Shown piece by piece: positions 11,591-62,567 of a stretch of DNA of 64,000 bases (positions within the stretch are counted from its first letter, which is position 1; every line of letters begins with the position of its first letter). The stretch spans positions 1 to 64,000 of the IMG/VR virus record IMGVR_UViG_3300035670_000075; one strand, 5' to 3'. Position numbers and translations under genes: made by a program. Under the pieces are notes generated by a model. It ran no database searches. It saw only the letters and a list, made by a program, of their open reading frames with translations, and was not told the DNA's origin. This DNA comes from a virus.

Positions 11591-14500
11591 TATTTTTTGC
11601 TCCGCGTTCTGCGCTCTTTTTCAATTTCGCGTTTAAGCGCATCCAAATCCTCTTTGCCGAGGCGCGTCAGCGCCCTTACAATGGCGTCTGTTTGCGCTTG
11701 TGCGTCACCCGCATTTTCCTCTCTCAGTGCGCGTAATTCAGCAAGTAGATCGCGCAGCAGTTGTTTTGTTTCCTCGTCGTCACCGCCGTCTGATTGTACT
11801 CTAATACCGTAATCAGACAATATACGCGAACTCACCGGATCAATAATTTTCTCGTCTTTATGAACACGCGCAACCTGATCGGCAGCAAGCCCGGCAGAAC
11901 CGGAATCATAAGACGGCAGATTGTCTATGCCGTAGGTTCTTGCGGCTTCAAATATTTTATCTATTTCTCCCGCATCAACACCGTAAGCAGTGCCAATTTG
12001 CGCTGTGCTCACATTATTGGCGATGGCGGCTTGCTCTATGTAGCGCAGCGTTTGATCGGTCAATCCGTTCTGCGCAATCTGGTTATCAGTCCATTCTCTG
12101 ATCACGGCGTATAACGCAGGGTCATCTGACTGCTGCGTTTGCACCGCTGATGATTGCTGCGCCGAGACTTGAGTAATCGCTTGCGCTGCGGCTTGAGCGG
12201 CAACTTGTGCGGCGGATTGCGAATCACTGTACGCTTGAATCTGCAATTGAACTTGCGCGGCATAATTGCCAAGCGATTCATGCATCAAGGTAACAGCGGA
12301 CGTTATTTGACCAAGCCCGATACCGATTGAGTTACCAAGATTAAACAACTCAAAGCCAAGGTCTGTTGCAGTAGCCGTACTCATGGTAAGCAGGGAGCTA
12401 TCAATGCCCTCAAGTGTCAATGCAGTTTCAGTTTTTTGCGCTTCAAGCTGCTGCTGCAAACCAACCTCAGCACCCAGCGCAATCTCATCTAAAGCCTGAA
12501 GCTGCTTGATCGCCTCATCGTATAGCTTTTGTGTTTGCGCACTGTAGACGCCATTACTTAGCGGGTCTGACGGCATTGAACCGGCGTTAGATTCAAGCTG
12601 CCCGGCAAAACCAGATAAGTCACCAGTTACCATGCTGAAAATATCGGAGTAAGGCGCTGAGCTTGCGTAAAAGCTTTGTGCTTCAGTAAGAAACTGATCC
12701 GATACGGTTTTCAGTTTAGAGATCGCGTCTTCGTCGCCGCCCTTAGCCAAATTCAGTGTTTGCCGATACTGCTTTTCAGCTTCAGCCATACGCTCCGCGT
12801 TGGTCAGCGTTGATTTGTCAGATAGCATTAAGCTGTCAACGTAATCACGCAGTTCCTTGGCGTATTTCATCAGGTTATCGTAATTTTCTTTTTGCGCCTG
12901 ATAGACCTCTTGTTCTTTGTTAAGCTGCTCATCAAGGCGGTTACTAATCAAACCTCTGACCTGCTCGGCAATCTCAAGTTGCTGCGCAAAATCTCCGCTT
13001 GCAACCGCAGAGTCGAGATCGCCTTGCAGCAAGTCTATTTGCTCGGTAACGCCAAGCCCTTCAAAGCGTTTTTTGCCGCCAATCTCTTTGATGTCATTGG
13101 CGATTGAACCGCGTAAGCTTTGCGCCGAACTGATAAGCTCTTGCGTTGCATCAAACATCGTTTGCGCCGATGTCATCACGGCGTTGCGATACTCGTCATG
13201 CACCGTAATTGCGGATTTCACACTGTCAGCATCACCGGCAACATACTGCAAAGACTCGAATGCTGATTTAGCATCGGCAAGCTTCTGTGTATCAGTCCTG
13301 AAGTCTGTAAGCTCAGTGATTTGGGCTCTCAGGTCTTGGCTCAGTTCTTCTATACCGCCAAGCATATCGCGGTATTCGCCAATCATGGTTTCAGCGTGAG
13401 ACTTAAAGATGTCGATGCGCTGCTGCTGATAAATTTCCTCGGCAACCGCAAGCGCCTGGTTATTGCCGTTAAGTCCTTCGCGCTGCTTGGCATAGCTAAG
13501 CTCTAGCTCGCGCAACTCTCTATCAATGCCTGTGAGCATCATCATTTCGCGTTCGCGTTGCAGGTCTTCTAATGCCTGATTGCCATCACTCATGACTGAT
13601 AAAGTATCGTCGGCAAAGGAGATAAATTCATCAAGCCCCATACCAAGGCTTTGAGCAAGCGCCGTTATTTCGGCGTTACTCATACTGCTTAATAGCCCGG
13701 CAATATCGGTTTCGCTAAAACCTTGATTCAATAAATCAAGCCCGGTAGTTTGCGCGGCAGTCTTGCCGTCCAAATAGGTCGAGCCAAGCTTATCGCGGAA
13801 GTCGTTTAACTTGCCTGTGGTTTCATCAACAATCTTAAGCACATCATCGGCAAAGCCCTTAAATTCTTCCAGCCCCATAGCGAAGTAACCGGCGAGTTCA
13901 ATCAGATCAGCCCCGCTCGCCTGAGATAGTATCGCGGCCAAGTCGTCAGCGCCAACATCACTGTTAATCGCTGTCATCGCGGTTTGTTGTGCTTGCGTTT
14001 GCTCGCCAAGGTATGTTTGGCGAAGGCTTTGCTGCCAATCCATTAACCCCTTCAGCGTTTCCAATACCCCATCAGCAAAACTGGTGAACTCATCATCAGC
14101 AAGCTTGAAGAATTTGGCGTAATCACGCAACTGCTCATCTGTCGCACTGGATAAAATATCGGCACTGCTCGCCGCCGTAAACCCGGTATCCTTAAGAGCT
14201 ACCGCAACTTTTTCGATGTCGCTGGATGCGCCAAGGTAGGTTTCTTTGAGTTTCTTTTGCCATTCAGCAAAATCGAACAACTCTTTAGCTGTTTCCTCTG
14301 TCGTATCTTTGGTTTCATTCAGTCCATCAAGGAAAGACTGATTCGCAGTAACAAAGCTATTCATCGGTGCGACTGCGGTATAAAGGTTCTCCGCCGCATA
14401 CCCCATTACGTCGCTGACGCCTTCAATCGCACTCTTGATTTCAGGATCGTTCATCACCTCAGCGTAAACATCAATCGCATCTTTGATTTTTTTCTTGATG

Positions 14501-17500
14501 TCAGTGTAATCTTTCTTTATTCCGCCTGAAGCATCAGCAACGTCATTGTAAAAACGAACCCCACTATCTTCAAGTTCGCCGCCAGCCGTTGCGCCGGATG
14601 CCGTCAAATTAGCGCCCGCCGCCGTGCCTCCGGTGATAATCATGTTTGATTGCGCGATAGTGCCGTTAATCATTGGCATGATTACGCCCTGCATAATCAT
14701 TTGCGATACGGAGTTGAACACGGTATCCATCATGCGCTCGGCAAACATCGCCGAAAATGCGTGGCTGGCGCGCTGTCCGGCTTCTTCCGCGCTGGATGCG
14801 TCCATGACGGATGACTTTAGGATGCCTGATACATCGCTGGCGCTGAATTGGTTACGCAAATCCAATAACTGCGAAGCAAACACTTGGACTTCAGTGCCGA
14901 ATTCCGCGAGTGAGTTGACATAGCTGATTACAGCCTCTTGATTTGCCGCCAGTTGCAAAGCCAGTTTCTTATGCGACTCGTTTTCCATGTCGAGGGAGTT
15001 CATCAGGTTCTCCATCTCGATAGCGTTACGAGGCACAGCAATACCAAGTTCATCAAAGGTTTGCAGGATATTGGATTCGCTGATTTCACGCCCGGCTTTA
15101 TTGAATACAGCAAGGCGTTGCTCAAACTCGGTAGAGAAGTTGGTAGCCAAAGCTTGAATATTCTCTACGCCGACACCCTGCACGTCATCAAAGGTAAGCC
15201 CACCTGCGCCTTTTACGCCGAGGTCTTTCAGCGTATCCGTCAAATCTTTTAACCCTTCTTTGGCGGTATAAAACACACCCATCTGACCTGCCATTGAAGT
15301 CAGTGCATTGTAGGCGTTCTGCCCTTCTACCGTAGTCAGGTCAAGCGATTCCACCAGCAAGCGGTATTGCTCACGGGTTGCCGGTAAGCCGTCCGCGCTC
15401 ATCTGAATACCATTCGCGGCGGCAATTGCATCAATGCCGAAGTTACTGAAGATGTTGGCGAACTGCGCCGATGTGGTAGCAAACTGCTTGCTATTGCGCT
15501 CTGACTCGGAATAGAAATTCTCGTAGAACGATTGCGTGTTTGCTGTCAGCGTGCCAAGCCCGCCTGACAGGTCAATAAACTCCTTGGTCAGTAAGTTGAC
15601 ATCGAACCCCGCCTGCTGGAACACAGTGCCAAGCTGCTGGAAGTCACCGGCAATCTGGTTAAAGTTGTCACCCGTCAACTCATCACCAAGCCCCTGCATG
15701 TACGTCAACATGGCTTTGTTTACGCCGGTCATTTTACTGGCGTCGAGATGTTGAATAGCGAATTGCAATGCGTCTTGCCCAGTTTCTTCCATCCAGGTTT
15801 GCAACTGCTCTTGCAAGTCGTCCTTGCCTTTAACGTCAAGCTCAGGATTAAATTCGGCTTGGAATATAGTCAAAATATCCTGTCCAAACATCTGCCCAAC
15901 GCTGGATACCATGCTGTCAAGTTGCGAAGCAAATGCGGCAAGCGGGTCATAAACGCCCTTCGCCATTTCAGCATAACCAACCCAGTCACCTGTAAGTTGA
16001 TCCTTGGTTCCGGTTCCAAATCCACCTGTCTCTGCATTATAGGCGTCATATTGGTGTCTGCGACCCCCAAAGGTTTTCTTTCTACTTCTATTAACACCAA
16101 CCTCTACGTCACGCAGACTACCTTTTGCTGAAATATCATCCAAGCGGTATGATTTGTCGAAACTCACAAAACTGCTCAGCGCCTTGATTGCAAAGCCAGC
16201 GGCAGTACCCCACCCAGGTATCATTGAAACACCAGCCGCAATACCGTCTACAATACCCTTCTGCCAGTTACCATTAGCAAAGCTAAGCAAGGATGACCCA
16301 ATATCCATCCACGGCACAGAACCAAGCTTGCCAAGCCCACCAGAAGAACTGAATAGCTTGTCCATGCCAAGCGACTTGCCGATATTTCCAAGCTTCTCCA
16401 TTCCCCAGTCTTTGATGCCGCCTAGCCACTTGGTTGCATCAGGAAAAGACTTACTGACCCATCCTTTCGCCGTATCCCACATACCGCTAATGCCGGTCTT
16501 CATGGATTTTGCAACGTCGCCACCAAACAAGCCTTCGTTCTGCGCCTGAATCATCTCGTCTTGCTGCGAACCAGGGACAGTCCAATTCTGCGGTGCCGCG
16601 CCAATCATCGCCGCCGCGTTCATGCTTTGTGCTGCAAGCATGTTAAAGCTTTGTGCCACCGCACCAGCGGAGTTAACCACTTCCATGTCAGCCGCAACGC
16701 GCGGATTCGATTCTTGTCCGAACAACTGATCCAGCACTGAATCCACTTGCTTCTTGTACATTGCTGTCAGGCGTTGGGTGAACATGTCTTTCAGCGAATT
16801 TCCCATGTCCTTGAAGCCGTCACTGGCGGATTTTTGCCCGGACATAATTTCAGCGAAACTCTGCGACACGGCATCTTGCACGCCGTACCAGAAGTCTTGC
16901 GATTCTTTAACTGAGTCGATGTACTCGCGCTGCGCCAGGATTAAGTTTTGCGTGCCTTCGTCGGCGTGCTGCAAGCCTTGGTCACGCAGGTAGTTGTAAT
17001 CCGTCTGCTCCTTGCGCGACATGCCGAGTAGCTTCAATTCCTCGTTCATGCCGTCAATCACGCCAGCCAAGTTTGCGCGGTCTTTCTCCAGCGCTAACTG
17101 TTGGATTTTTTCTTTGTTGAGATTCGCCGCCGCCTTGCCGTGCTTCTGCTCATACTCGAACAGCAGTTGTTGGTAAGTGGTCAGCGACTTGTTGTTCTTA
17201 ATCCTTTCAACTTCCAGCGCCTTCAGTTCATTGGCAACATCCGCCTGCGCGTTCATCGCCTGCACGCCAAGGATCGTCCCCGCGTCAACGCCTTTGTCTT
17301 TTTGCTCGTAAGCGAACTTCTCGCCTTCGCTCATGCCCGCTACAGCCAGGTTTTTCGAGGCGTCCTGAAGGAGTTTGGCGGCTTCGGCTTGTTTACGCAG
17401 TTCGACAGTGCGATTCACCAAGTCCATGTTCGACTTGACCACTTCTGCGCCGTATTCGTTTTCCAGGTCGAGAATAAACCGCTGATCCTCGGTTATATTG

Positions 17501-38577: not shown

Positions 38578-38914
38578 GGGGACGACAAGGCTTCGACAGT
38601 GTGAGTGAGGTATGTCGTGCAGGTAGGTGAGAGTGTCACCTTAAAAAAACTCAAACCAGCAATCGCAAACGACGAACGCTACGCCGTAGCTGCTTAAGCT
38701 ACGCTGCATCGCGGCGGTGCTTGTATACCGCGAATCGCAGTCATTTACAAGATCGTCATGCCTGATGTCTGCGACGGCTTGATTAAATCGGCGGACTCTC
38801 CGCGCCTAAGCCTTTCGCTCGGCGTCGTCGCGGTAACCCAATAGAGCGAATAAACCTGTAGATCGGCATGGTGAAACATGCTGGACGTGGGTTCGATTCC
38901 CACCGTCTCCACCA
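38578..38914 (+). ncRNA. ssrA: tmRNA, one-piece, 337 nt; tag ANDERYAVAA
   Basis: 5' GGGGACG pairs with 3' CGTCTCC-ACCA including the G3-U alanine identity pair; T-arm GTGGGTTCGATTCCCAC; resume codon GCA 38665 to TAA 38697. Confidence 0.95.
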
Positions 38915-38938
38915 TGTTTATTTTTAACCCATATAAAA

Positions 38939-39133
38939 ATGCCTGAAGAAAAAGATAGGTACTGTTCGTTTTGTGGACAGCCTAGCGACATCGTGGATTT
39001 GCTTATCGCCGCGCCTGGAGAGCAGGCGTTTATCTGCAATGAGTGCGTGGTGTCATGTGTTGACCTAATCAATAAAGTTTACATCGAGAGACGCAATGGG
39101 AAACAGAACAAACGCAAAGAAGTTCAGAGCTAA
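38939..39133 (+). CDS. stand-alone ClpX C4-type zinc-binding domain protein
   Basis: YCSFCG...LIAAP...ICNECVVSCVDLI mirrors the ClpX N-domain (YCSFCG...LIAGP..ICDECVDLCNDII); no ATPase domain. Confidence 0.85.
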   Translation: MPEEKDRYCSFCGQPSDIVDLLIAAPGEQAFICNECVVSCVDLINKVYIERRNGKQNKRKEVQS

Positions 39134-40378: not shown

Positions 40379-40429
40379 CACACAAAAAAGCCCGCCATGC
40401 GTTTATTGCGTGGCGGGCTTTTTTGTGTG
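40379..40429. terminator. bidirectional intrinsic terminator
   Basis: CACACAAAAAAGCCCGCCA...TGGCGGGCTTTTTTGTGTG between convergent genes. Confidence 0.9.
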
Positions 40430-40435
40430 TCACGA

Positions 40436-40744
40436 TCATCTATTGTAAGTATAAATAACCTTATCGCCTTGCATTACAATATCGGCTGACGCCAATGTGT
40501 TCATTGCGAACCCGCAATTACAGCAATATATTGCGGGTTTATAAAAGCCTTCTCCGCTAATATTCCAACCAATGTATTCACCAGGATTTCCGCATGAGCA
40601 GCACTTCCTTATGACCAATGGGATATTACGAAAGTCCAAACTTGCATCCAAATCAAAAACAGTAGGCTCATTTGATTCATGGCTACCAATTAAGCCTCTC
40701 AAAATTGATTCTGCTTGTTCTGCGCTTTTTATTTCATGTAGCAT
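40436..40744 (-). CDS. small zinc-ribbon protein
   Basis: CCSC...CCNC; GAGG RBS. Confidence 0.65.
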   Translation of the reverse strand: MLHEIKSAEQAESILRGLIGSHESNEPTVFDLDASLDFRNIPLVIRKCCSCGNPGEYIGWNISGEGFYKPAIYCCNCGFAMNTLASADIVMQGDKVIYTYNR

Positions 40745-40767
40745 ACCGACCTCTAATGTTGATTTTT

Positions 40768-42171
40768 TTAACGCGCAGCCAGCACAAACGCTTCGTCTGC
40801 GCCGAATCTGCTTAGCGGTACATCTGGAATTTCCTCAATAACACGCTTATTCCACAGTTTATAGTCGGCACTACCATACTGCTGCTTTGCTTTTATAACC
40901 GCATCTGATACCTGCTTATTACTCACATACGGCGTTTGCAATGTCAGCGCGCTTGCGCCGTAAACAAATATGCACTCGCCTTTTTGCGATAGCTTCTGCG
41001 CCCCCGACATGCCAAGAATGGTTTGACTGGCATTGTGGTCTGGAACGCGGAATGCGATACGCGCATCAAAGTTGTTACGCATCGCGGTATCAATAATCTG
41101 CGCGTCAGGCGACTGCGTTGCGACCATCGGCAGGATGCCAGCGCTTCGTCGCAGCGATACCAAACGAAAGAAAAGTGCTTGGCATTCTTTAATGATGGGC
41201 TTTTCTTCTTCAGTCAGCATCTTACTGCGCGTCAACATCGATAACTCATCAATAACCACCATGATAAACGGGAATGGCAGCGGCTTACCATCCTCAACGT
41301 AGTTGTCGAGTTTCTTTTTGCCGCGCGCTTGCAGTTCAATTTGCCGCCTATCGCCCTCAGCATCAAGCCACTGCAAAATCTCGTAGGCAGACTGCAAATC
41401 TTTGGCGATTGGCGCTAACAGGTGCGGCATGTCATCGTAAAAACCAAGCTCTGCACCATTCTTCAGGTCGATGCCGACCATGCGGAAAACGTTCGGTTTG
41501 TTATTACTGACCCATTGCACGATTGCACTGTTGAGGAAGTTTGACTTACCCCAACCCTTAGTTCCAGCAGCCAAATAAGATGCGTCACGACCGACGTAAA
41601 TCTTTTTACCTTCAGCACTTTCGCCGAGGTAGATATTTAGCGGGTGTGGATCAGGATTTTGGTATTCAGCGTGGGCGGAAACTTCATTTGCTGCTGACTG
41701 CTCAACAACCTGCGCCACCTTTTCTTGTACAACCGCAACAGGCATCTGCTCACTTCTTTGTTGCATCTTCTTCAGTGCCGCCAAAGCCTGCTGATACCTC
41801 GCGCTAACAGATTTGAGTTCGCCAGAAAGATGCTCGACTTGTGCGACGTACTTACGCTCAGCCTCGTTGCGCGCCGCTGCAATATCAGCGGCGCGAGACT
41901 TCTTCAGCGCATCGAGTGCGCTTGAAGTCACCTTCAGTTGGCGCGTGACCGACTTGAAATCGGCTTCTAATTTATCGTAAGCCAGTCTCAGGTCGGCAAA
42001 GCGGCTTTTAATCGCGTCAATCTTGCCTATCAGTTTGGTTTTCTCGCCATTCTTCCACTGACGCCACCGGGCGTCGTAGCGCTTCCATAGTTCTTTGTGA
42101 GCTATCAACGCTCCCCACATCGCCGTGGGGACGATAAAGAACGCTGCCAGTGTCCAGTTTGGATCAAGCAT
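40768..42171 (-). CDS. FtsK/SpoIIIE-family ATPase with N-terminal TM and coiled coil
   Basis: AGTKGWGKS (Walker A), IDLKNGAEL, VVIDEL (Walker B), RSAGILPMVATQ, NFDARIAFRV. Confidence 0.9.
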   Translation of the reverse strand: MLDPNWTLAAFFIVPTAMWGALIAHKELWKRYDARWRQWKNGEKTKLIGKIDAIKSRFADLRLAYDKLEADFKSVTRQLKVTSSALDALKKSRAADIAAARNEAERKYVAQVEHLSGELKSVSARYQQALAALKKMQQRSEQMPVAVVQEKVAQVVEQSAANEVSAHAEYQNPDPHPLNIYLGESAEGKKIYVGRDASYLAAGTKGWGKSNFLNSAIVQWVSNNKPNVFRMVGIDLKNGAELGFYDDMPHLLAPIAKDLQSAYEILQWLDAEGDRRQIELQARGKKKLDNYVEDGKPLPFPFIMVVIDELSMLTRSKMLTEEEKPIIKECQALFFRLVSLRRSAGILPMVATQSPDAQIIDTAMRNNFDARIAFRVPDHNASQTILGMSGAQKLSQKGECIFVYGASALTLQTPYVSNKQVSDAVIKAKQQYGSADYKLWNKRVIEEIPDVPLSRFGADEAFVLAAR

Positions 42172-43948
42172 TTGCTGCTCCTTCGAGTTTGAAATTAGCC
42201 CACATTCCTGAGTCTATTTCCGGTTGGATTTTTTTAGTTCCGTAGCGCGATATATGCCCGTCATTGCATTTGAATGCTTCTTGAGCAGTTGACGCTTTTT
42301 CGCCCAACACAACCATCCGGTAACGAAACTTGCACGTCCAGTCATTACAATTTTCAATGACACGTCCATTTTCGTCTAAACCAGGATGCCCAAACCCTTT
42401 TCCAGTCACTTCATCCCACGACTGACTTAGCTTGGCGATTTCATCAGAAACCGATGCGGTTTCATGTGCCGATTCAACAACGCCAGCAGGCATTGCAAAA
42501 TCACGTTGCGATGCACGGCTTAAAAAATCAATCACGTCAGCTTTCTGCTGGACTGGTTCAACATCTCCAAAACTAACGGCAACAGCCGTAGCGCCCTGGA
42601 CTGGGTATTGAACCACTGCGTCATGACTTCCACCGTAGGCTGTTACACCAGCACTGGCAACCACTGGTGAAGATGTGGCGCTGAATCCGCCGCCGAACAC
42701 GCTGCCTTGTGCGCTTGGTTGCTCTTTGGCGGGTTCTTTTCTGGTGGTTGGGCGTGGCGGTACGGGGTCGTTATCGCCATCATCATCGCCAATACTTGCC
42801 AATTTGTCTCTGGCTTTTTCAATTTGCCGAGAGAAAAATCTTTTTGCCGCGCCAGGCAGAATAGATGCTTCATTATCTGCAACCTCGTCAATAATAGTGC
42901 CGTCATCATCTCGCAAAAATCTTAACTGCCCCTTATACATGACATGCAGCGCCCATAAAATAGCGAAACTCGCCGTCATAGCCAATAGCGTAGAGACTCT
43001 TTCAGGTGACGTTCCTACCAACTCGCCAATGCGATGTATCGCAGGCATATAAACATCGCCACCTGCGCTCCCGCTTTTAATTACAGACTGGTCGTATTCT
43101 CTCTGCGCAATAACAACCGCCTGCTCTGCCGCGTTCAACTGCTGAGCATACTGATGGTACATTGAATACTTACCAAGTTCAGCCTGTAATTGAGCTATCA
43201 GCGGTGAGGTTGTTTCTGCTGGCTTTGATTGCTTAATTCTGTTCCAGTCGTCGCATACAGCCTTCGCTGCTGATTTCATCAACCCATAGGACGTTGTTTT
43301 AGGCGTACATGATTGGTCGGTGATTTGTCCTCTGGTAAACTCGGCGTTGTATTGAGCATTCCAAAATTCGGCAACCTGCTTATTGTAAACGATCATCTTG
43401 CTTTCATTTGCAGCGTTAAGACGCTCGCGTTCAGCATCTATTTGAGCTTGTATGCTGCTGTACTTGGATACGTTTTCAGATAACTCAGATTCGCTGAATT
43501 TCCCGCCAGCACCAACTTTACTCAGTTCATTAACTGGAACTCCCGCTATTCTTGCCATTTGATTTTTTGCGGCATCCAAGTTTGAGCTTGAAGCGGTAAC
43601 ACCGGCAGAGCTTACGATGCTTTTAACCCTGTAGTCATTGAATACATCGGTGAAAAATGATGTCATCGAGAACATGGTAATAACAAGCGTAAGCCCATTC
43701 ACAATGCGCGCGCTATTGGCAAGTCCATGATCCCCGATTTCAAGCGCAATAATTTCAGTTGCAATTAGCATTCTTCTGATGTAAACCAGCCCAATTGCAA
43801 AGCCAATGAGGATTGCTTGCGTGAGTTCATCATCTGACATGCGCGCCCATGTGTACGCTTCAGCAGCGAATACCAAGATCAGCATCCCCCATATGGCTGT
43901 GCTGTAGTTTGCGGCTATATCAGTTCTCTGTCTGTTGGTAACTGCCAT
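42164..43948 (-). CDS. polytopic membrane protein with long coiled-coil domain
   Basis: Three N-terminal hydrophobic helices, about 220-aa helical region, fourth TM, low-complexity linker, Cys-containing C-terminus; overlaps both neighbours. Confidence 0.75.
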   Translation of the reverse strand: MAVTNRQRTDIAANYSTAIWGMLILVFAAEAYTWARMSDDELTQAILIGFAIGLVYIRRMLIATEIIALEIGDHGLANSARIVNGLTLVITMFSMTSFFTDVFNDYRVKSIVSSAGVTASSSNLDAAKNQMARIAGVPVNELSKVGAGGKFSESELSENVSKYSSIQAQIDAERERLNAANESKMIVYNKQVAEFWNAQYNAEFTRGQITDQSCTPKTTSYGLMKSAAKAVCDDWNRIKQSKPAETTSPLIAQLQAELGKYSMYHQYAQQLNAAEQAVVIAQREYDQSVIKSGSAGGDVYMPAIHRIGELVGTSPERVSTLLAMTASFAILWALHVMYKGQLRFLRDDDGTIIDEVADNEASILPGAAKRFFSRQIEKARDKLASIGDDDGDNDPVPPRPTTRKEPAKEQPSAQGSVFGGGFSATSSPVVASAGVTAYGGSHDAVVQYPVQGATAVAVSFGDVEPVQQKADVIDFLSRASQRDFAMPAGVVESAHETASVSDEIAKLSQSWDEVTGKGFGHPGLDENGRVIENCNDWTCKFRYRMVVLGEKASTAQEAFKCNDGHISRYGTKKIQPEIDSGMWANFKLEGAANA

Positions 43949-45048
43949 CACACTTCTCCTGTTTTGATTAATGGTTCTATGTCAGCGTAAACTTGTTGTG
44001 ACTTAATAAATGACGCAAACTTGTTTGCTGCGTTTACGGTATTAAACTCAACGTGAATATGACCTCCTGTTGAGCCTTTTGATGATTGCTTATACTCATC
44101 AATTACATCAAAATCTTTATCTTTCATCCCGGCAGATAACAGCCATCCATTAATTTTGCTTGCATAGTTGGCGCTCTTGTCGTGCTCAGAGATTATGAAA
44201 TCCAAAGCCAATCCATCCGTATGCAGGCTTTCTGGTTTTTTATTTTTGTGCCACGCATCATTGAGCGACGTAAACCTAATAAAAGAGCTATCAACATCGG
44301 CTTTCTGAATCATTCCAGCTAAAATCCAGATAGCCTCATGGCTATCTCCGCCTTCAACAGCCTGCCCGTATCGACCTCCTTTGATCACTAGCTCGCTTTT
44401 TTGATACTGCCTAAAATCTGAGGTTATATTTGCAACGTAGGCTCTTGTTTCTTTGAATGGAGGAATCGTGTTTTGGTACTTGCGCACGTTACCTTGTCCG
44501 GCGTTATATGCCGCCAAAGCCAAATCAACAGAGCCAAACATTTTCAGTAACTTGGCGAGATAAGATGCTCCGCAATCTAAATTTTTATCTATGTCGAAAA
44601 TGTATTCTTGCTCAAGACCGCATTCACCGCTTGCAGTAGCAGGCATCAACTGAGTTAAGCCTGAAGCACCTTTTGGTGAGCTAATGTTTTCAATCCATAC
44701 CGATTCCTTCGTTATAAGCGAACGAAACAAATACTTGTCAATGCCGTGGCTATCAGCATAGCAATCTGCTTTATTGCGCTTTCCTTCCACTTCGGCGCAA
44801 TTGCCAGTAATGGGCTTGTTATTTAACAAAAAATCAAACGACAACTCCTGTTTGGCAATGCTTGCAGAAGCACTTCTAATATAAAAATCAAAGCCTGGAA
44901 TACTCGGCATCTTGAGGAAATCGAAAGCCACCATGACAGCTATGATGCATAGTGCTGGCGCAATGTTGTACCGTAACGGATACCTGTCATTCCAAAAAAC
45001 CTTAACCACGATTAAGGTGATAATTACTCCAAATATAGACTCGTTCAT
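43948..45048 (-). CDS. membrane-anchored lytic transglycosylase (SLT) fused to an M15/DD-peptidase-like domain
   Basis: KES, SPKGASGLTQLMPATA, ALAAYNAG, PPFKETRAYV; C-terminal SLHTDGLALD...HIHVE (H-x6-D...HxH); two N-terminal hydrophobic segments. Confidence 0.85.
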   Translation of the reverse strand: MNESIFGVIITLIVVKVFWNDRYPLRYNIAPALCIIAVMVAFDFLKMPSIPGFDFYIRSASASIAKQELSFDFLLNNKPITGNCAEVEGKRNKADCYADSHGIDKYLFRSLITKESVWIENISSPKGASGLTQLMPATASGECGLEQEYIFDIDKNLDCGASYLAKLLKMFGSVDLALAAYNAGQGNVRKYQNTIPPFKETRAYVANITSDFRQYQKSELVIKGGRYGQAVEGGDSHEAIWILAGMIQKADVDSSFIRFTSLNDAWHKNKKPESLHTDGLALDFIISEHDKSANYASKINGWLLSAGMKDKDFDVIDEYKQSSKGSTGGHIHVEFNTVNAANKFASFIKSQQVYADIEPLIKTGEV

Positions 45049-45072
45049 TGTTTGATTCTTCTATGTGATTGA

Positions 45073-45139
45073 TATATGATTTGCACATATACTCGTATAC
45101 CAAATACTATATCATAACGATATATGATGCAAGCATATA
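45073..45139. promoter_or_regulatory. two palindromic operator-like sites TATATG-N7-CATATA
   Basis: At 45073-45091 and 45121-45139 in the divergent intergenic region. Confidence 0.6.
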
Positions 45140-45178
45140 TGCGTCACATATCGCCAAACGCGACACAAAGGATATACA

Positions 45179-45553
45179 ATGGCTGCGCAAGCTAAACTTA
45201 CTGATGAGTTAAATCGTGATGAATGCCTCGGTGATGAGGTATTCATGGGGAGAGTTATCGCTGTGGCGGAAGGAAAACCGAAAGTAAAGCAGCTATCAGT
45301 GCCGGGTGTTCTTTTTGATGAATGCCAAGAATCGTCGAGAGCGCTTGGACTGCCGTTTAATGAGTGGATCGTTCAAGCCATGCGTGACAAGCTTGCGCGT
45401 GAGCGCGGCGTATCTTTATTGACGGAACCCGATATAAAACTGATAGAGGAAACGGCGCGCAGAATGGCTGAGCAAGTCGGTGATGTAGTTGCGGAAAGAA
45501 CCGCTGGTCAGTACGGAATGCTGATCGAGCTATGCAGGAATGGAAAAGACTAA
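45179..45553 (+). CDS. putative ribbon-helix-helix regulator
   Basis: KQLSVPGVLFDECQESSRALGLPFNEWIVQAMRDKL fits the RHH pattern; AAGGA RBS. Confidence 0.6.
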   Translation: MAAQAKLTDELNRDECLGDEVFMGRVIAVAEGKPKVKQLSVPGVLFDECQESSRALGLPFNEWIVQAMRDKLARERGVSLLTEPDIKLIEETARRMAEQVGDVVAERTAGQYGMLIELCRNGKD

Positions 45554-45634: not shown

Positions 45635-45726
45635 GATACCTATAAGAACTCCATTTGAGCGCCATTCAGCCAGCGCACATCTTCGCCTGAAATCCATTGG
45701 CTAGGGTTCATGCTGGCTGTATTGAT

Positions 45727-47289
45727 TCACTCAAAAACGCTGATTTGACCGCAGAAGCTTACGCTGTTGCCGTCGCTGTCAGTTCCCGTCCACTTTGCCG
45801 CCGTCCATTCAGCTTCGGCGGTACGCGGGCCGTCGTTTTCACCGGCAGTCGGGGCGAAGCTCATGGTTACTTCAGCCGCGCTGAAGATCACCAGTTTGCC
45901 TGCGCCAGCGCAATCTTTCTCCTGCAACTTCAGGTCGATGCGCGACTTACAGTTGCGTTTCATCCGGTCGTAATACTTCACGGAGTTACCCACGAACAAG
46001 AACGTCACGCTGCCAGTCAGGTTGACATGATTCAGGTGAAAGTTGGTGTTGTAGTAACCCGCCAAGCTATCAGGGTTGTGTGCGTCAACACCGCATTTGG
46101 TGGTGCGAATGCCAGCGTAGCGTTCTTGCATGTTCCACGAACCGCTGGTGATGCAGAACGCGCCTGTCGTGCCTTCGGCACTGGAGTTGGTCGTGAATAC
46201 CATATTCGCGCCTACCAACGGATCGGTGATGGACGAGGCGGTGACGGTGGTGTGGTACGGGGCAGAAACGGCATCGTCTTCTTTGGGGTTGTAATCCAAA
46301 TCGGAAGTAACTACCGCCGTAAAGTTGCCGGTAGCGGTGCTTTCGATGTCGCAAGACATTTCAAAACCGCTGATGGCAACACCGTTGATCCGGCGATAGA
46401 ACGGAATACCGGAGTCGGACTCGTTGACTTGAAAGGTTTTGAAGGTGTTGCTGTCGCGGATGTACTTCGCCCGCACAAACGTCACCGCCACACCAGCTTC
46501 AGCCAGCAATGCGCGCGGGCCTTTGACGGTAATCTTGTGTGCGCCAGGGGTGCTGGTATCTTTGTCTTCGACCAAGAAAGGCTCATCGTTGGCGGAGGCG
46601 TTAATTACCAATCCGCTCATCTTGATGAACTGACCGATACCCACGTTAGCCAACCAGCCGTCGGTTGCGCACGCAATGTGGTAAGTGTCCGGCGTGCCAG
46701 CGGTAACGGTGATAGTGACGGTACGCGACGCGCTTTCTTGCGCAACCCAACCCGTATTATTGGTCATCACGGAGGGGATGAAATCGTCGAACTTGTCGTC
46801 GAGGCGCAGCGAATCTTCAACGGAGAAGCCAACGTCAAAGCCGTTGACGACGCGATGACCGTAACGCAAATCTTCAGAGATAACCGCACCGGCTTCGTCA
46901 TCGTAGCTCGCGCTGTCTTCAATGCCGCCGCCCTTGTAAACCAGTTCCTTCACGGTAGGCGGGACGGTAATACTGATCAACGTGTCGGTACTGAATGCCG
47001 CACCGTCAACCGTCAGCACATGGGGGTCGGCGCTAGTATCCACCGCTACCACATAACGGGTTTCGCCAGCCAGGGTGCCGCCATTGATAAGTACGGGATG
47101 ACCGGCTACCAAGCCGTCAAACTTGCTCGGCGATGCGGCGGCAACGGTAATGTCGTTGTCATTCAGCGCGCCATCGACTGCGGTGAACGTGCCGGTGCGG
47201 GTTTCCAGTTCGTACTGACCGCGATTGGTTTCTTCTTTGTACACCAAACCAACGCGAGCAGCGGTAGGGGTAGAGACTTGGGTTGTCAT
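45727..47289 (-). CDS. major tail tube protein with inserted beta domains
   Basis: Acidic Thr-rich 520 aa; ISEDLR, FDDFI, TFKTFQV, LTGSVTFLF...YYDR resemble siphophage tube proteins; start set at MTTQV (GAGGA RBS). Confidence 0.75.
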   Translation of the reverse strand: MTTQVSTPTAARVGLVYKEETNRGQYELETRTGTFTAVDGALNDNDITVAAASPSKFDGLVAGHPVLINGGTLAGETRYVVAVDTSADPHVLTVDGAAFSTDTLISITVPPTVKELVYKGGGIEDSASYDDEAGAVISEDLRYGHRVVNGFDVGFSVEDSLRLDDKFDDFIPSVMTNNTGWVAQESASRTVTITVTAGTPDTYHIACATDGWLANVGIGQFIKMSGLVINASANDEPFLVEDKDTSTPGAHKITVKGPRALLAEAGVAVTFVRAKYIRDSNTFKTFQVNESDSGIPFYRRINGVAISGFEMSCDIESTATGNFTAVVTSDLDYNPKEDDAVSAPYHTTVTASSITDPLVGANMVFTTNSSAEGTTGAFCITSGSWNMQERYAGIRTTKCGVDAHNPDSLAGYYNTNFHLNHVNLTGSVTFLFVGNSVKYYDRMKRNCKSRIDLKLQEKDCAGAGKLVIFSAAEVTMSFAPTAGENDGPRTAEAEWTAAKWTGTDSDGNSVSFCGQISVFE

Positions 47290-47436
47290 AGCAAAAATCC
47301 TCTGATAGTGAAATTGATTGTCAATCAATGAGTTGACACGCCTTTCACTATAGGGGAAGATGCGTGTATTTAATGTATTTTTTGTGTTAAATGTAGCGCT
47401 AAGCGTTGTTGCATGTCATAAAATCGGGTAAACTAA

Positions 47437-51348: not shown

Positions 51349-51819
51349 CTACTGTTCGGCGGCTTCTTCGCCTACCGCTTCCACCACTTCTTCATGCTTT
51401 CTCACCAACGGCAAGATTGGGCCTTGCCAACCGCAATCTTCGTCTCCTTCGTAATTAACCAATGCGTATTGGATAACGCCAAGCTCGACTGCGCTGCCTT
51501 TATTGGGGAACGCAACCGCGCCGTCGCCCTTGGTTTTTACGGTGACAGCGGTAATACCTGATGGCAGACCTTCGAGTACGCCTTTAGCGACATCCGTTGG
51601 CAGCGCCAAGAAATAAGTTCCAGGTTTAGTTGGGCGGTGAGTATCGAAGCAAATCACCTCGACGCCCATTGCCGACTGCATGATTGCCAACGAGTCGCGC
51701 ATGACTTCATGCGCCTCTTCAGGCGTAAGTGCTTTTCCGCCTGGCGAGTTGTCGCTTAACGCAATCGCGATGTCTTTGCCATTTAAGAAAACGTCTTTAA
51801 GCGTGTTGATGATGCCCAT
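51349..51819 (-). CDS. hypothetical protein
   Basis: GGTGG RBS; 156 aa. Confidence 0.7.
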   Translation of the reverse strand: MGIINTLKDVFLNGKDIAIALSDNSPGGKALTPEEAHEVMRDSLAIMQSAMGVEVICFDTHRPTKPGTYFLALPTDVAKGVLEGLPSGITAVTVKTKGDGAVAFPNKGSAVELGVIQYALVNYEGDEDCGWQGPILPLVRKHEEVVEAVGEEAAEQ

Positions 51820-51928
51820 ATAACCACCGAATTATCCTGTGTATATTGATGAATTTTATGTGTTTTTCCAAGTAAAATCAACACATTGTTACCTATAGTC
51901 GATTTAATGCGCTAGAGCTTACGTTAAC

Positions 51929-52444
51929 CTATCTATCATCCATCAGGCGATTGATTTTATCTTCGCTTTCTTGCTTTTTACGCATGTACTCAGCACGCAT
52001 TTGTTGTAACTCTTCGAGCGTCCAATCGCTGCTGCTGAAAAGATCGCGTGTTTTTTGGCTAAAATCGCTTTCGCTTATTTCGCTGTTTTTCTCGTCGCTG
52101 TTGCCATTGCTTTTGTCGCTAGGCTTGTCATCTTCTATGATCTTACCAAACCTAGACTCAAATAATTTTTTCAGCGCCCCGAATATGTAGGGGAGTCCAA
52201 CATAACCAGCAAAAACAGACATGCCAGTAGTGAACACAGTGTCGTTTTTGAGTTCAGGGAAAACCACTACCGTAACCGCAGCAAAAGCAATTGCAGCAAA
52301 GCCACCGCCCAAAACTTTACCGATAATATTCCTGGTAGTTAGATTGCCCTCAGCATTGAATACTGCCCCCAATGCAGATAGTGCGCCGACCAGCCAAATC
52401 AAACCTACTCTTGTGATCTCGGCATAGATATTTGGCTCCTGCAT
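51929..52444 (-). CDS. holin (3 TM, P2 gpY-like) with long charged tail
   Basis: Three hydrophobic helices; LTTRNIIGKVLGGG...FPEL...AGYVG. Confidence 0.7.
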   Translation of the reverse strand: MQEPNIYAEITRVGLIWLVGALSALGAVFNAEGNLTTRNIIGKVLGGGFAAIAFAAVTVVVFPELKNDTVFTTGMSVFAGYVGLPYIFGALKKLFESRFGKIIEDDKPSDKSNGNSDEKNSEISESDFSQKTRDLFSSSDWTLEELQQMRAEYMRKKQESEDKINRLMDDR

Positions 52445-52758
52445 TGGTTTTCATCGCCCTGTGCTATTCTGTGTTCATGACTTCTTAATTCTTGTTGAAT
52501 AATCGATCTAGTTTCACGACCTGATGAAATATAATAGTCATTGGCTATGAAGCCTACCCATGCTGATATGCCTATCGAAACAATCATCACAGCAATCATT
52601 ACAACCCGGAAAAGCCGATTAAAACCACGCTCTATGTTGTAGTCTGAGTGCAACTGTGAAATTTCAAATTCCAGTCGCTCCATTCGCTCTTTGTTTAATT
52701 TGCTGTCTGCTTCGATGCGAGCCAAGCGACCCTCAATGCTTTCGGCAAAGTCACCCAT
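52405..52758 (-). CDS. coiled-coil plus single-TM protein of the lysis cassette
   Basis: RLARIEA...RLEFEI coil followed by one hydrophobic helix. Confidence 0.6.
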   Translation of the reverse strand: MGDFAESIEGRLARIEADSKLNKERMERLEFEISQLHSDYNIERGFNRLFRVVMIAVMIVSIGISAWVGFIANDYYISSGRETRSIIQQELRSHEHRIAQGDENQCRSQISMPRSQE

Positions 52759-53320
52759 TCAATATCTCCACAAAACCGCCGTTTCCGTCTTCCATGTAAT
52801 GCCACTGGTAATCTAAAGAGTCCCATCGCCATACATGTTGCCAACGGTTATCAACTACATAATCACCTTCGTAGGTGTGAACGACTAGCACCATATGGTA
52901 TTCGGTACGTTCTCTATCTGCCCAACAGGTAGCTAATCGTAACTGGCTACGGTCAATACCTTCTAACATCAATAACAGTAATGCGAATACTGCGTGTCCA
53001 TCACAGTCATCAGCTATTTTGCCAGCAGGTGTTAAGTTTGGTACTTCCCAGTTGTCTATTTCACCATCAGGTGTGTAGATAAAGTTACGAAATAGAAAAC
53101 TTCTGACATCTTGAAGTATCGTTAAGATACTGGCGTTGTCGGAATGTAATTGATAACCCTCAATTCCGTTAAGACTGTATTTAAGGTAGGCAACGCGTAA
53201 ACTTCGCTGGAAAGCTTTGTAGCGTTGATAATGTGAATCAGAAAGCCAATGCTTTTCGCCGGTTTGAATAAACGGTTCTACAGCGAAAAACTCTTTTAGC
53301 TTTCTAAACAGCCATTTCAT
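52751..53320 (-). CDS. transglutaminase-like cysteine protease (BTLCP/C93, LapG-like)
   Basis: DNWEVP, DDCDGHA (Cys), LRLA, HMVLVV (His), VVDNR (Asp). Confidence 0.8.
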   Translation of the reverse strand: MKWLFRKLKEFFAVEPFIQTGEKHWLSDSHYQRYKAFQRSLRVAYLKYSLNGIEGYQLHSDNASILTILQDVRSFLFRNFIYTPDGEIDNWEVPNLTPAGKIADDCDGHAVFALLLLMLEGIDRSQLRLATCWADRERTEYHMVLVVHTYEGDYVVDNRWQHVWRWDSLDYQWHYMEDGNGGFVEILNG

Positions 53321-61001: not shown

Positions 61002-61622
61002 TTAGCCCCCCATCAGCAGGTTGTTTTTGGAGCGCACTTGCTGTGCGGATTTTTTGAACGCATCAGCATCCAAGCCCATTTGACGCGCGATGGTAGACTG
61101 CGCGATGGTCAAGCCGCTGTCTTCGTCGTATTCGTGGACGCCGCCGGTTTGAGAAGCTGCAAACGCACGCATCGGCGTACATGCCGCCAAATACTCTTTC
61201 AGTCCGTCGATGTTTTGCGCACCCATGCGCTTAGCCCAGGTGACTTCGGCTTGGCTGACCAGCTTGCCGCTGGCTTGAGCTTCGGCAATCAGGGATTCCA
61301 ACTCGCGGGCTTTCGCGTCGCGCTCTTGGGCTTCCAGTTTTTCCGTCAGCTTGGCGATGATTTCTTTCTGCTCCATCAGCACACTCTGATCGGGCAGAAC
61401 ATCATTACCTTTGGTAGTTGCGGCGGGGGCAGCAGTGGATTGTTTATCGGCAAGAATTGCCGCGATTTTTTCGTCTTGCGCTTTCAAGTTGGCTTGCATC
61501 GTTTCGATAGCGGAGGATGCTTTGGCGGACTTGGCGATCAGATTACCGACCGCCTCAGCCACCGCGTCATCGCCAGCATCTTCCGGCAGGCCAAGCGCAG
61601 TTTTCATTGCTTGATAGTCCAT
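61002..61622 (-). CDS. scaffolding protein from an in-frame internal start
   Basis: AGGAG RBS 7 nt before internal ATG (MDYQAMKTALGLP); C-terminus resembles Mu I/Z. Confidence 0.7.
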   Translation of the reverse strand: MDYQAMKTALGLPEDAGDDAVAEAVGNLIAKSAKASSAIETMQANLKAQDEKIAAILADKQSTAAPAATTKGNDVLPDQSVLMEQKEIIAKLTEKLEAQERDAKARELESLIAEAQASGKLVSQAEVTWAKRMGAQNIDGLKEYLAACTPMRAFAASQTGGVHEYDEDSGLTIAQSTIARQMGLDADAFKKSAQQVRSKNNLLMGG

Positions 61623-62471
61623 TGAATGACTCCTGTTTTGAGTTTGCTTGGATTGACTGGGTGATAACTCGCTGATCACGGATTCCAGGCTACCCAACCT
61701 GTCCGCCAGCCCTGCTTCAACAGCCTTGGCTCCCGTCAGGATGCCGCCGCCACCGAATCTATTAAGAACTGTGTCGATTGATACGCCACGGTTTCGCGCC
61801 ACATCACGCACGAACACATCGGCTAAATCGTCCACGTTTTGTTGAATTTGCGAGCGCCCGTCTTCCGTCGCCGGATCGGGGCGTTTATTCGGGGATTGCG
61901 ATGACACGATTTCGTGCTCAACAACGCCAAGCCCCTCTTTCATCTTCCGGCTGTCAACATAAGTAGCAACAACACCGATAGAACCCAGTTGCGCGGTTTT
62001 ATCAACCACGATGTCGCCCTTCTTGACTGCGCTGGACAGCCAGTACGCAGCACTTGCCGCCATGCCACCAACGTAGGCTATGATTCGCTTCTGCTTGGCG
62101 TAGGCGCGAATGTGGGACGCCAACTCGCTAATCCCGGTGACATGCCCGCCTGGGCTGTCAACCAATAACACGATGCCGTTGACTTCCGGGTTATCGACCG
62201 CAGCGGAGATGTCTTTTGCCAACACTTCGACCGACGTTGCGCCGCTGATTTCCGTCATTAAATTGGCTTTGGGGAAAATCGCGCCTTCAATTGGAATGAT
62301 TGCAACGCCATCCCGATAGGTGACAGTGCGTGTATATTGCAGCGGCTCGCCACCACGCATCAGAACTGAGTGGTACTCGTTCTCGCGCTGCGCAATCGTG
62401 CGAATCATCTCCAGCCATTCGGCTGTAATCAGCCACGGCGCGGAGTCGATGAGGTGAATTAACGGTTTCAT
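61002..62471 (-). CDS. S49-family capsid maturation protease fused to scaffold
   Basis: VDSPGG, MAASAAYWL, GSIGVV, FVRDVARNRG, GLADRLG; start at MKPLI is uncertain. Confidence 0.88.
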   Translation of the reverse strand: MKPLIHLIDSAPWLITAEWLEMIRTIAQRENEYHSVLMRGGEPLQYTRTVTYRDGVAIIPIEGAIFPKANLMTEISGATSVEVLAKDISAAVDNPEVNGIVLLVDSPGGHVTGISELASHIRAYAKQKRIIAYVGGMAASAAYWLSSAVKKGDIVVDKTAQLGSIGVVATYVDSRKMKEGLGVVEHEIVSSQSPNKRPDPATEDGRSQIQQNVDDLADVFVRDVARNRGVSIDTVLNRFGGGGILTGAKAVEAGLADRLGSLESVISELSPSQSKQTQNRSHSMDYQAMKTALGLPEDAGDDAVAEAVGNLIAKSAKASSAIETMQANLKAQDEKIAAILADKQSTAAPAATTKGNDVLPDQSVLMEQKEIIAKLTEKLEAQERDAKARELESLIAEAQASGKLVSQAEVTWAKRMGAQNIDGLKEYLAACTPMRAFAASQTGGVHEYDEDSGLTIAQSTIARQMGLDADAFKKSAQQVRSKNNLLMGG

Positions 62472-62567
62472 GTATCGGATAATAACCTGTTTATTTTTGC
62501 AAGTCATTGTTATAATGGTAAAAATAGCCTGCTAGGTAGCTATGTATAAACTATAGAGGATTATGCG

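Follow-up and report, generated by a model that had tools for sequence, protein, structure and literature searches.

FtsEX-EnvC and SteAB-RipA are membrane complexes in which periplasmic coiled coils switch on cell-wall hydrolases. In phage phi29, the early membrane protein p16.7 carries a C-terminal DNA-binding domain and holds phage DNA at the membrane. Phages also encode motors of the FtsK type, for which we know of no assigned role. Here, we describe an operon in a 64,000-nucleotide stretch of DNA (the window) from the uncultivated virus record IMGVR_UViG_3300035670_000075. It encodes a membrane-anchored peptidoglycan hydrolase (P0001), a polytopic protein with four transmembrane (TM) segments (P0002, the 4-TM protein), an FtsK-type motor (P0003), and a small Cys-pair protein (P0004). 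The motor is tied by overlapping genes to an unnamed protein family that appears to join a cytoplasmic DNA-binding domain and a periplasmic wall cutter. Our tentative reading, which we regard as possible rather than probable, is that the operon is a device handling DNA at the cell envelope.

The operon and its membrane proteins

Four co-directional genes on the minus strand span positions 45048 to 40436, and the first three are translationally coupled. The features of the operon, with sizes in amino acids (aa), are as follows.

P0001, 45048..43948, minus strand: membrane-anchored hydrolase, 366 aa, with two TM helices, an SLT domain, and a likely LAS/M15-type Zn peptidase domain
P0002, 43951/43948..42164, minus strand: 4-TM protein, 595 aa, with a predicted periplasmic helical hairpin and a predicted cytoplasmic Cys-rich tail with a helix-turn-helix (HTH)-like end
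P0003, 42171..40768, minus strand: 467 aa, with one TM segment, a coiled coil, and an FtsK/SpoIIIE motor, without alpha, gamma, and 4TM domains
P0004, 40744..40436, minus strand: 102 aa, CxxC...CxxC, Zn-ribbon-like by eye
Intrinsic terminator closing the operon, about 40418..40384, minus strand: arms GCCCGCCA(C/T)GC followed by a T run
P0005, 45179..45553, plus strand: divergent gene, 124 aa, small regulator candidate
Divergent control region, 45049..45178, 130 bp: operator-like repeats

The stop of P0001 and the start of P0002 overlap in GTGTGATG, with AGGAGA ahead, and the ATG of P0003 lies 8 nt inside the end of P0002, preceded by GAAGGAG. The gap between P0003 and P0004 is 23 nt. The terminator pairs G+C-rich 11-nt arms, mismatched at one position, around a 7-nt loop; an A run precedes it and a T6 run follows. 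Within the control region, we identified three 14-nt direct repeats (core GATATATGAT), a 26-nt pair spaced 48 bp, two inverted repeats of 30 and 14 nt, and the palindrome GCATATATGC. The operon is an independent transcription unit amid structural genes, because it has its own terminator, the divergent gap is packed with repeats, and the upstream late gene ends at a terminator of its own. A preliminary description of this stretch, made from the sequence alone, had proposed overlapping, coupled genes with TM segments, preceded by a divergent gene and palindromic sites and followed by a terminator. All genes were found where it had placed them, together with the repeats and the hairpin with its T run. 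Its regulated operon likewise holds up as a self-contained set of envelope proteins with a regulator candidate, repeats, and a terminator of its own.

The two small proteins gave little by homology. P0005 matched no Pfam or PHROG family, and its match to YlcI/YnfO was weak and below the cut-off (E 0.0013). The strand-helix-helix order of its residues ~37-75 fits a ribbon-helix-helix fold by eye only, with no backing from a hidden Markov model (HMM). P0004 matched no family in four libraries, and its Cys pairs are read from the translation only.

P0001 is a member of the SLT lytic transglycosylases (PF01464). The Pfam model matched residues 98-193 with 76.9 bits against a cut-off of 21.3, and the predicted structure of this domain matched 5o2n with a Z score of 18.2 (root-mean-square deviation (rmsd) 2.3 Å, 135 residues). 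The catalytic pair E115-S116 is invariant in five homologues. The C-terminal domain carries the motif SLHTDGLALD ... GGHIHVEF, of which SLHTDGLALD and HIHVE are conserved in three distant homologues; SxHxxGxAxD and HxH are kept in the homologues of loci L011 and L035 (described below), despite 24-27% identity. In the predicted structure, fold matches within residues 226-340 were to LAS-family structures only, namely the VldE C-domain (Z 7.9, rmsd 3.3 Å, 88 residues), hedgehog (Z 6.4 and 6.3), and the Zn DD-peptidase 1lbu (Z 6.0), matches that are limited by the model confidence in this range (predicted local distance difference test (pLDDT) 55-85). The C-terminal domain gave no Pfam M15_4 match, and a PDB profile search with it was empty. 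A LAS-type peptidase is thus likely but unproven, because no HMM or PDB profile search backs it. The dual hydrolase of the preliminary description therefore stands in its SLT half, and its H-x6-D/HxH peptidase is a likely assignment based on the conserved motifs and the LAS folds.

The TM helices of P0001 occupy residues 1-19 and 29-47. Its N-terminus is short and acidic and the loop between the helices contains Arg, which suggests that both ends of the protein lie outside and that the enzyme domains are in the periplasm.

P0002 matched no Pfam, PHROG, NCBIfam, or PADLOC family. An exhaustive HMMER search over 1.84 billion representatives returned 25 matches in about 25 representative clusters, which constitute an unnamed family. 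All of them match residues 10-340, except for a fragment of P0002 itself and a relative, P0125. The TM segments lie at about 12-30, 46-64, 83-103, and 319-337. The AlphaFold model is confident for residues 10-345 (pLDDT ~90), with residues 390-595 at low confidence. Together, the alignment and the model give the order three TM helices, a long helical hairpin, a fourth TM helix, a low-complexity linker, and a variable tail. The tip of the hairpin bears a motif conserved in the family, FW..C.PK..YG(GG).MKSAA..C. The positive-inside rule suggests that the hairpin is periplasmic and the tail cytoplasmic, and the conserved Cys pair at the tip therefore fits the oxidising periplasm.

The tails of the family point to DNA binding. 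One member gave significant matches to HTH_7, HTH_28, and HTH_23, most of the others have HTH-type sequence at the end, and some have CxxC...CxxC ribbons there. In P0002, the final 45 residues align with the HTH ends of its relatives. These cytoplasmic HTH and Zn-ribbon tails, which the preliminary description had overlooked, could supply the DNA binding that the motor P0003 is without.

Structure-based searches with the P0002 model did not connect it to a known protein. Foldseek against the PDB gave nothing at E <= 0.001, and fold searches returned generic long-helix matches only, the best VIA score being Z 8.2 (rmsd 15 Å). BFVD yielded two uncharacterised phage proteins. The ESM Atlas yielded unnamed phage clusters only, with DUF4407 at 0.80 as a weak lead. 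No match was obtained by tblastn with P0002 against phage and plasmid collections, and no relative was found when viral contigs were scanned with P0002, P0003, and two family alignments.

P0003 was identified by its sequence matches as a bona fide motor of the FtsK/SpoIIIE family, as had been proposed. It scored 77.8 bits against PF01580 (FtsK_SpoIIIE; cut-off 24, residues 171-396) and 192.6 bits against PHROG 1358, and it matched FtsK in the PDB (2iuu, E 8e-23, residues 163-437). Walker A (GTKGWGKS) and Walker B (VVIDE) are intact in the translation. The motor is preceded by a TM segment (residues 6-24) and a coiled coil of ~130 residues. The best cellular matches are FtsK proteins, at 33-36% identity over about half the protein. 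Nearly all of these cellular matches carry the gamma (PF09397), alpha (PF17854), and 4TM (PF13491) domains, none of which was detected in P0003 at E <= 0.1. Only ~30 residues lie behind the motor, in line with the earlier impression that a C-terminal gamma or winged-HTH domain was not obvious. Among 5.8 billion proteins, the only full-length relative is P0006 (43-46% identity), all others matching the motor only.

Several assignments within the motor superfamily were considered and rejected. As a cellular FtsK, P0003 is missing the three hallmark domains and scores 77.8 bits against a cut-off of 1566 (NF007615). As a Streptomyces TraB (NF041214), it scores 15.4 bits against a cut-off of 800 and has no C-terminal domain behind the motor. 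As a type VII EccC or EssC, it has a single domain in place of two or three in tandem, and its scores of 71.6 and 60.1 bits fall well below the respective cut-offs of 509 and 778. The FtsK-like genes of mycobacteriophage Omega and a Bacillus phage were also rejected as parallels, since they stand in unrelated contexts without an SLT or 4-TM gene. The five proteins of the operon matched no VirB4 or relaxase family in the library scans; no dedicated whole-genome search for either was made.

These scores bear on whether the system might export protein. In a type VII-like arrangement, the ATPase would drive secretion of a small protein, such as P0004, via the membrane proteins, and the hydrolase would open the wall. 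The EccCa and EssC scores do lie near that of FtsK. However, all matches are far under the family cut-offs, P0003 has one ATPase domain and not three, and neither a WXG-like substrate nor any further type VII core protein was detected. The DNA-binding tails of the partner protein also point to DNA. We consider protein export very improbable.

Conservation and divergence of the hydrolase/4-TM pair

Using HMMs of P0001, P0002, and P0003, we compared the 4-TM locus of the window with nine others, one on a metagenome contig and eight from six genomes. In five of these ten (the window, L002, L011, L033, and L035), an SLT gene, with or without a LAS domain, lies directly upstream of the 4-TM gene or overlaps it. 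These paired loci range in G+C from 0.38 to 0.64, the latter value being that of L002. L011 is on a 67.8-kb phage-like contig with a lambda-type terminase, and the pair in L033 adjoins an integrase and tail genes. The LAS domain is kept in three of the five paired hydrolases. Two further loci, L034 and L036, belong to early operons of Mu-like prophages, where the 4-TM gene follows MuB and Gam or an exonuclease and no hydrolase is present.

Because no locus besides the window has an FtsK-like gene, the conserved unit appears to be the hydrolase/4-TM pair, with the ATPase as an addition. The preliminary description had treated the three genes as one unit and had named their failure to co-occur as evidence against its proposal; an FtsK-like gene was found at none of the nine other loci, and the triad does not survive as a conserved unit. 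The general function of the core pair must therefore be something other than DNA pumping.

This gene content could also be explained by a one-component transmembrane transcription factor. In this case, the hairpin of the 4-TM protein would monitor the wall, for instance through what the hydrolase produces or how active it is, or would detect a superinfecting tail. The tethered HTH would then switch phage genes, and the ATPase would be a later add-on with a separate role. The HTH or Zn-ribbon tails behind a long low-complexity linker fit such a protein, as do the position of the family gene in early or regulatory regions of Mu-like prophages and beside an integrase, and the lack of the ATPase at nine of the ten loci. 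Nevertheless, no known regulator family was matched, tight coupling to a wall hydrolase and a DNA motor would be unexpected for a plain regulator, and the operon already has a divergent regulator of its own. A regulator is somewhat unlikely in our estimation.

The 4-TM family is concentrated in one bacterial order. In the GTDB order to which a Ca. Parabeggiatoa metagenome-assembled genome (MAG) belongs, 6 of 55 genomes gave strong matches (E < 1e-50), versus 0 of 396 genomes of other orders from an even sample of 400 Gammaproteobacteria. The naive p value of ~3e-6 is indicative only, since the genomes share ancestry and the MAGs include binned phage contigs. Within that order, the best matches to the prohead protease of the window (38-40% identity) are in the two genomes carrying the pair, one of them on the same contig as L011. 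The filamentous host guessed at in the preliminary description gains circumstantial support, and only that, from the concentration of the family in the order containing Ca. Parabeggiatoa.

The locus L011 corresponds to positions 40000-59999 of contig G023:C208, whose two ends (28-714 and 66686-67387) give almost identical S49 protease matches. This repetition could mean that a complete phage genome, circularly permuted, was binned into a MAG. L011 also contains tandem small paralogous ORFs (open reading frames) at 14110-15052.

The closest relatives of the window proteins differ sharply in their degree of conservation. P0001 is 90% identical to P0158. P0002 and P0125 share ~25-30% identity over the TM/periplasmic part and ~90% over the last 200 residues, with a sharp switch between the two. 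Should P0158, P0125, and P0006 belong to a single phage, divergence would be much faster in the ATPase and in the periplasmic region of the 4-TM protein than in the hydrolase and the tail.

Divergence of the TM/periplasmic part beside a conserved tail and hydrolase would be expected for a part under diversifying pressure, for instance in an exclusion or defence module. Here, envelope proteins would block or abort the DNA entry of other phages, the ATPase would act on the invading DNA, and the hydrolase would serve as a suicide or repair effector. The moron-like layout, with its own promoter region and terminator, is consistent with this idea, as are the integrase adjoining the L033 pair and the best PADLOC matches of the motor, which are the FtsK-like ends of SspH (E 1.7e-27). 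On the other hand, P0158, P0125, and P0006 are not established as one genome, and known injection-blocking proteins are small and without DNA-binding tails. No whole defence system was matched, the PADLOC hits covering one domain only. The operon was accordingly rejected as a PADLOC system: the ATPase domain of P0003 alone matches the FtsK-like ends of SspH, mad8, and DndH, and the other four proteins match nothing. We judge an exclusion or defence role unlikely.

The phage genome and its candidate lysis functions

The source record is a single virus record of 105,387 bp from a subsurface metagenome, and the window is its first 64 kb. CheckV estimated a completeness of ~95%, with linear ends. 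Three sequencing runs are associated with the record, all of DNA and from one subsurface-metagenome study; no RNA run is listed. The virus is an uncultivated tailed phage, as indicated by an S49/Mu-I prohead protease, a holin, a LamG tail-fibre-like gene, an 8036-aa ORF, a transfer-messenger RNA (tmRNA), a dihydrofolate reductase (DHFR) gene, and two DNA methylase genes, all in the window. Those with positions are the following.

S49/Mu-I prohead protease, 61002-62507: tailed-phage marker
Holin, 51929-52444: PF04550, PHROG 175
Uninterrupted ORF of 8036 aa, 11590-35700, minus strand: upstream of tail-tip-like genes
tmRNA, 38578-38914: tag ANDERYAVAA

Beyond the window, two tyrosine recombinase genes lie adjacent to each other in opposite orientation (genome positions 88154-89506), and the phage is therefore probably temperate.

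A genome-wide search for muralytic enzymes found P0001 as the sole SLT in this 95%-complete genome, with no match to Phage_lysozyme, Amidase_2, M23, or M15_4, and the genome as a whole showed no classical endolysin family. This result raises the question of whether the operon is a lysis or lysis-timing module, in which P0001 would be an endolysin kept inactive in the membrane, and P0002, here along with the ATPase, would control its release or activation. Membrane-tethered (SAR) endolysins are a known type. The pair-carrying contigs of the genomes G023 and G407 also lack any Phage_lysozyme or Amidase_2 match. Against a role in lysis, the holin lies 7 kb away in the late genes, with a BTLCP cysteine peptidase and small membrane ORFs as its neighbours, and an endolysin would more usually be encoded there. 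In addition, the operon carries a repressor and a terminator of its own, family members in Mu-like early operons occur without any hydrolase, and holins carry no DNA-binding tails. Since the only recognisable holin is this distant one, with other candidate partners beside it, we rejected the P0001 operon as a holin-endolysin cassette; the possibility raised in the preliminary description, that the SLT protein might prove to be the endolysin, is weakened by the separation of the operon from the holin cluster. Lysis as the function of the operon also has a low probability in our view.

The candidate lysis cluster itself occupies 51349-53320 on the minus strand. Besides the holin, it encodes a cysteine peptidase of the BTLCP/LapG type (PF06035), a 117-aa single-TM protein with a coiled coil, and a 156-aa protein.

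Other observations concern the surroundings of the operon. Upstream of it, mirror ORFs of ~540 aa cover the same DNA on the plus strand (45697-47331) and the minus strand (45727-47328). The minus-strand ORF looks real, is probably structural, and ends at a strong terminator (45634-45603). The plus-strand ORF is probably spurious, its product being rich in Arg, Gly, and Val. Starting 24 nt after the tmRNA, a 64-aa ORF encodes two CxxC pairs (region 38578-39133). A megablast search with the operon found no DNA-level likeness in phage or plasmid records, and our literature searches found no description of such a gene set.

Possible DNA handling at the envelope and comparison with known systems

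The domains of the three proteins, their topology pattern, the coupling of their genes, the conservation of the pair, and the variable DNA-binding-type tails form the basis of the reading we tentatively favour. The TM positions and flanking charges support a topology with the enzyme and the hairpin in the periplasm and the tail and the motor in the cytoplasm. In this model, a self-contained accessory operon under its own repressor would have, as its core, a two-gene envelope module. The hydrolase would be held in the inner membrane by its two-helix hairpin, with the SLT and LAS-type Zn peptidase domains facing the periplasm. The hairpin of the 4-TM protein (~190 residues, with the Cys pair at its tip) would reach through the periplasm towards the sacculus. 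On the cytoplasmic side, a long flexible linker would lead to a small DNA-binding domain, either an HTH or a Zn ribbon in the relatives, and a Cys-rich domain followed by the HTH-like end in P0002 itself. The 4-TM protein would thereby hold DNA at the membrane and place or control the hydrolase, such that the wall is opened at that spot only.

In the window phage, and probably in one relative as well, this pair would have gained an FtsK-type hexameric motor and a Zn-ribbon protein. The motor might pump double-stranded DNA (dsDNA) at the site, with the 4-TM tail providing DNA binding in trans. We infer that the proteins form a complex with DNA as its substrate, and the direction of movement could differ among the candidate roles, which are pulling the long phage genome into the cell, exporting DNA or spreading it through a septum, and anchoring it for replication.

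Several observations weigh against DNA handling as the function. A membrane protein with an HTH could just as well be a membrane-bound transcription regulator, and the operon has no outer-membrane component. The HMM search detected no FtsK-like gene at the other nine 4-TM loci, and five of the ten loci have no SLT gene in the available sequence, two of them in Mu-like early operons. Each of the 55 genomes of the Parabeggiatoa order has one cellular FtsK and no P0003-type ATPase. The model scores give no means of distinguishing a DNA pump from a protein pump (FtsK 77.8, EccCa 71.6, EssC 60.1, and TraB 15.4 bits). Finally, with P0001 as the only SLT in the genome and the four other muralytic families unmatched, a role in lysis is possible.

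A more specific scheme, which we regard as distinctly unlikely, is a virion-independent route for dsDNA. The 4-TM protein would tether the phage genome to the inner membrane, the anchored SLT-LAS enzyme would open the septal wall, and the FtsK motor would pump the DNA into the neighbouring cell of a filamentous sulfur bacterium. Such a route, at the same low level of probability, would be a Gram-negative, phage-borne counterpart of the Streptomyces TraB/Spd spread, and the concentration of the 4-TM family in the Ca. Parabeggiatoa order would then reflect multicellular hosts.

A module that moves DNA would give phage genomes a new means of crossing or exploiting the envelope. One that acts in sensing or regulation would represent a new class of membrane-bound phage regulator. 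The concentration of the family in prophages of large sulfur bacteria offers a defined place to test either idea.

Among described systems, the Streptomyces TraB/Spd system, with its kil/kor-type repression, resembles the operon in combining a membrane-associated FtsK-family motor with polytopic proteins under a divergent repressor. As in that system, no relaxase, VirB4, or pilus genes were seen near the operon, although no dedicated relaxase or VirB4 search was made. The components nevertheless differ. TraB has a C-terminal winged HTH, which reads clt repeats, and P0003 has none and scores 15.4 bits against the TraB cut-off of 800; P0002 matches no Spd or other family. Moreover, the phage host is presumably Gram-negative, and the hydrolase here is a fused SLT and LAS enzyme.

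The FtsK-like coupling ATPases of Gram-positive conjugation (PDB 6o1w-6o1z, described by their depositors as 'DNA translocase coupling protein') are, like P0003, N-terminally anchored and without a gamma domain. These conjugation systems likewise join the ATPase with a membrane-anchored peptidoglycan hydrolase and a polytopic protein. However, their PDB match to P0003 is weaker than that of FtsK (E 1.4e-16 versus 8e-23), the operon is without other transfer genes, and its setting is a tailed phage. With cellular FtsK/SpoIIIE, P0003 shares the RecA-like beta motor with intact Walker A and B. It differs in having one TM segment in place of the 4TM domain, a coiled coil at the place of the alpha domain, and no gamma domain.

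FtsEX-EnvC and SteAB-RipA resemble the operon in placing a polytopic protein with a long periplasmic helical hairpin beside a hydrolase, and a cytoplasmic ATPase is present here too. This is a likeness of shape only, as there is no sequence relation and those systems have no DNA-binding tail; the fold match of SteB-RipA to P0002 (Z 7.7, rmsd 15.8 Å) is within the noise for helical proteins. The protein p16.7 of phi29 has one TM segment, no periplasmic domain, and no hydrolase partner, and homology with the 4-TM protein is not expected. By description, however, it shares with this protein the combination of a membrane anchor, a coiled coil, and a small C-terminal DNA-binding domain, and its early expression has a parallel in the members of the 4-TM family that lie in early operons of Mu-like prophages.

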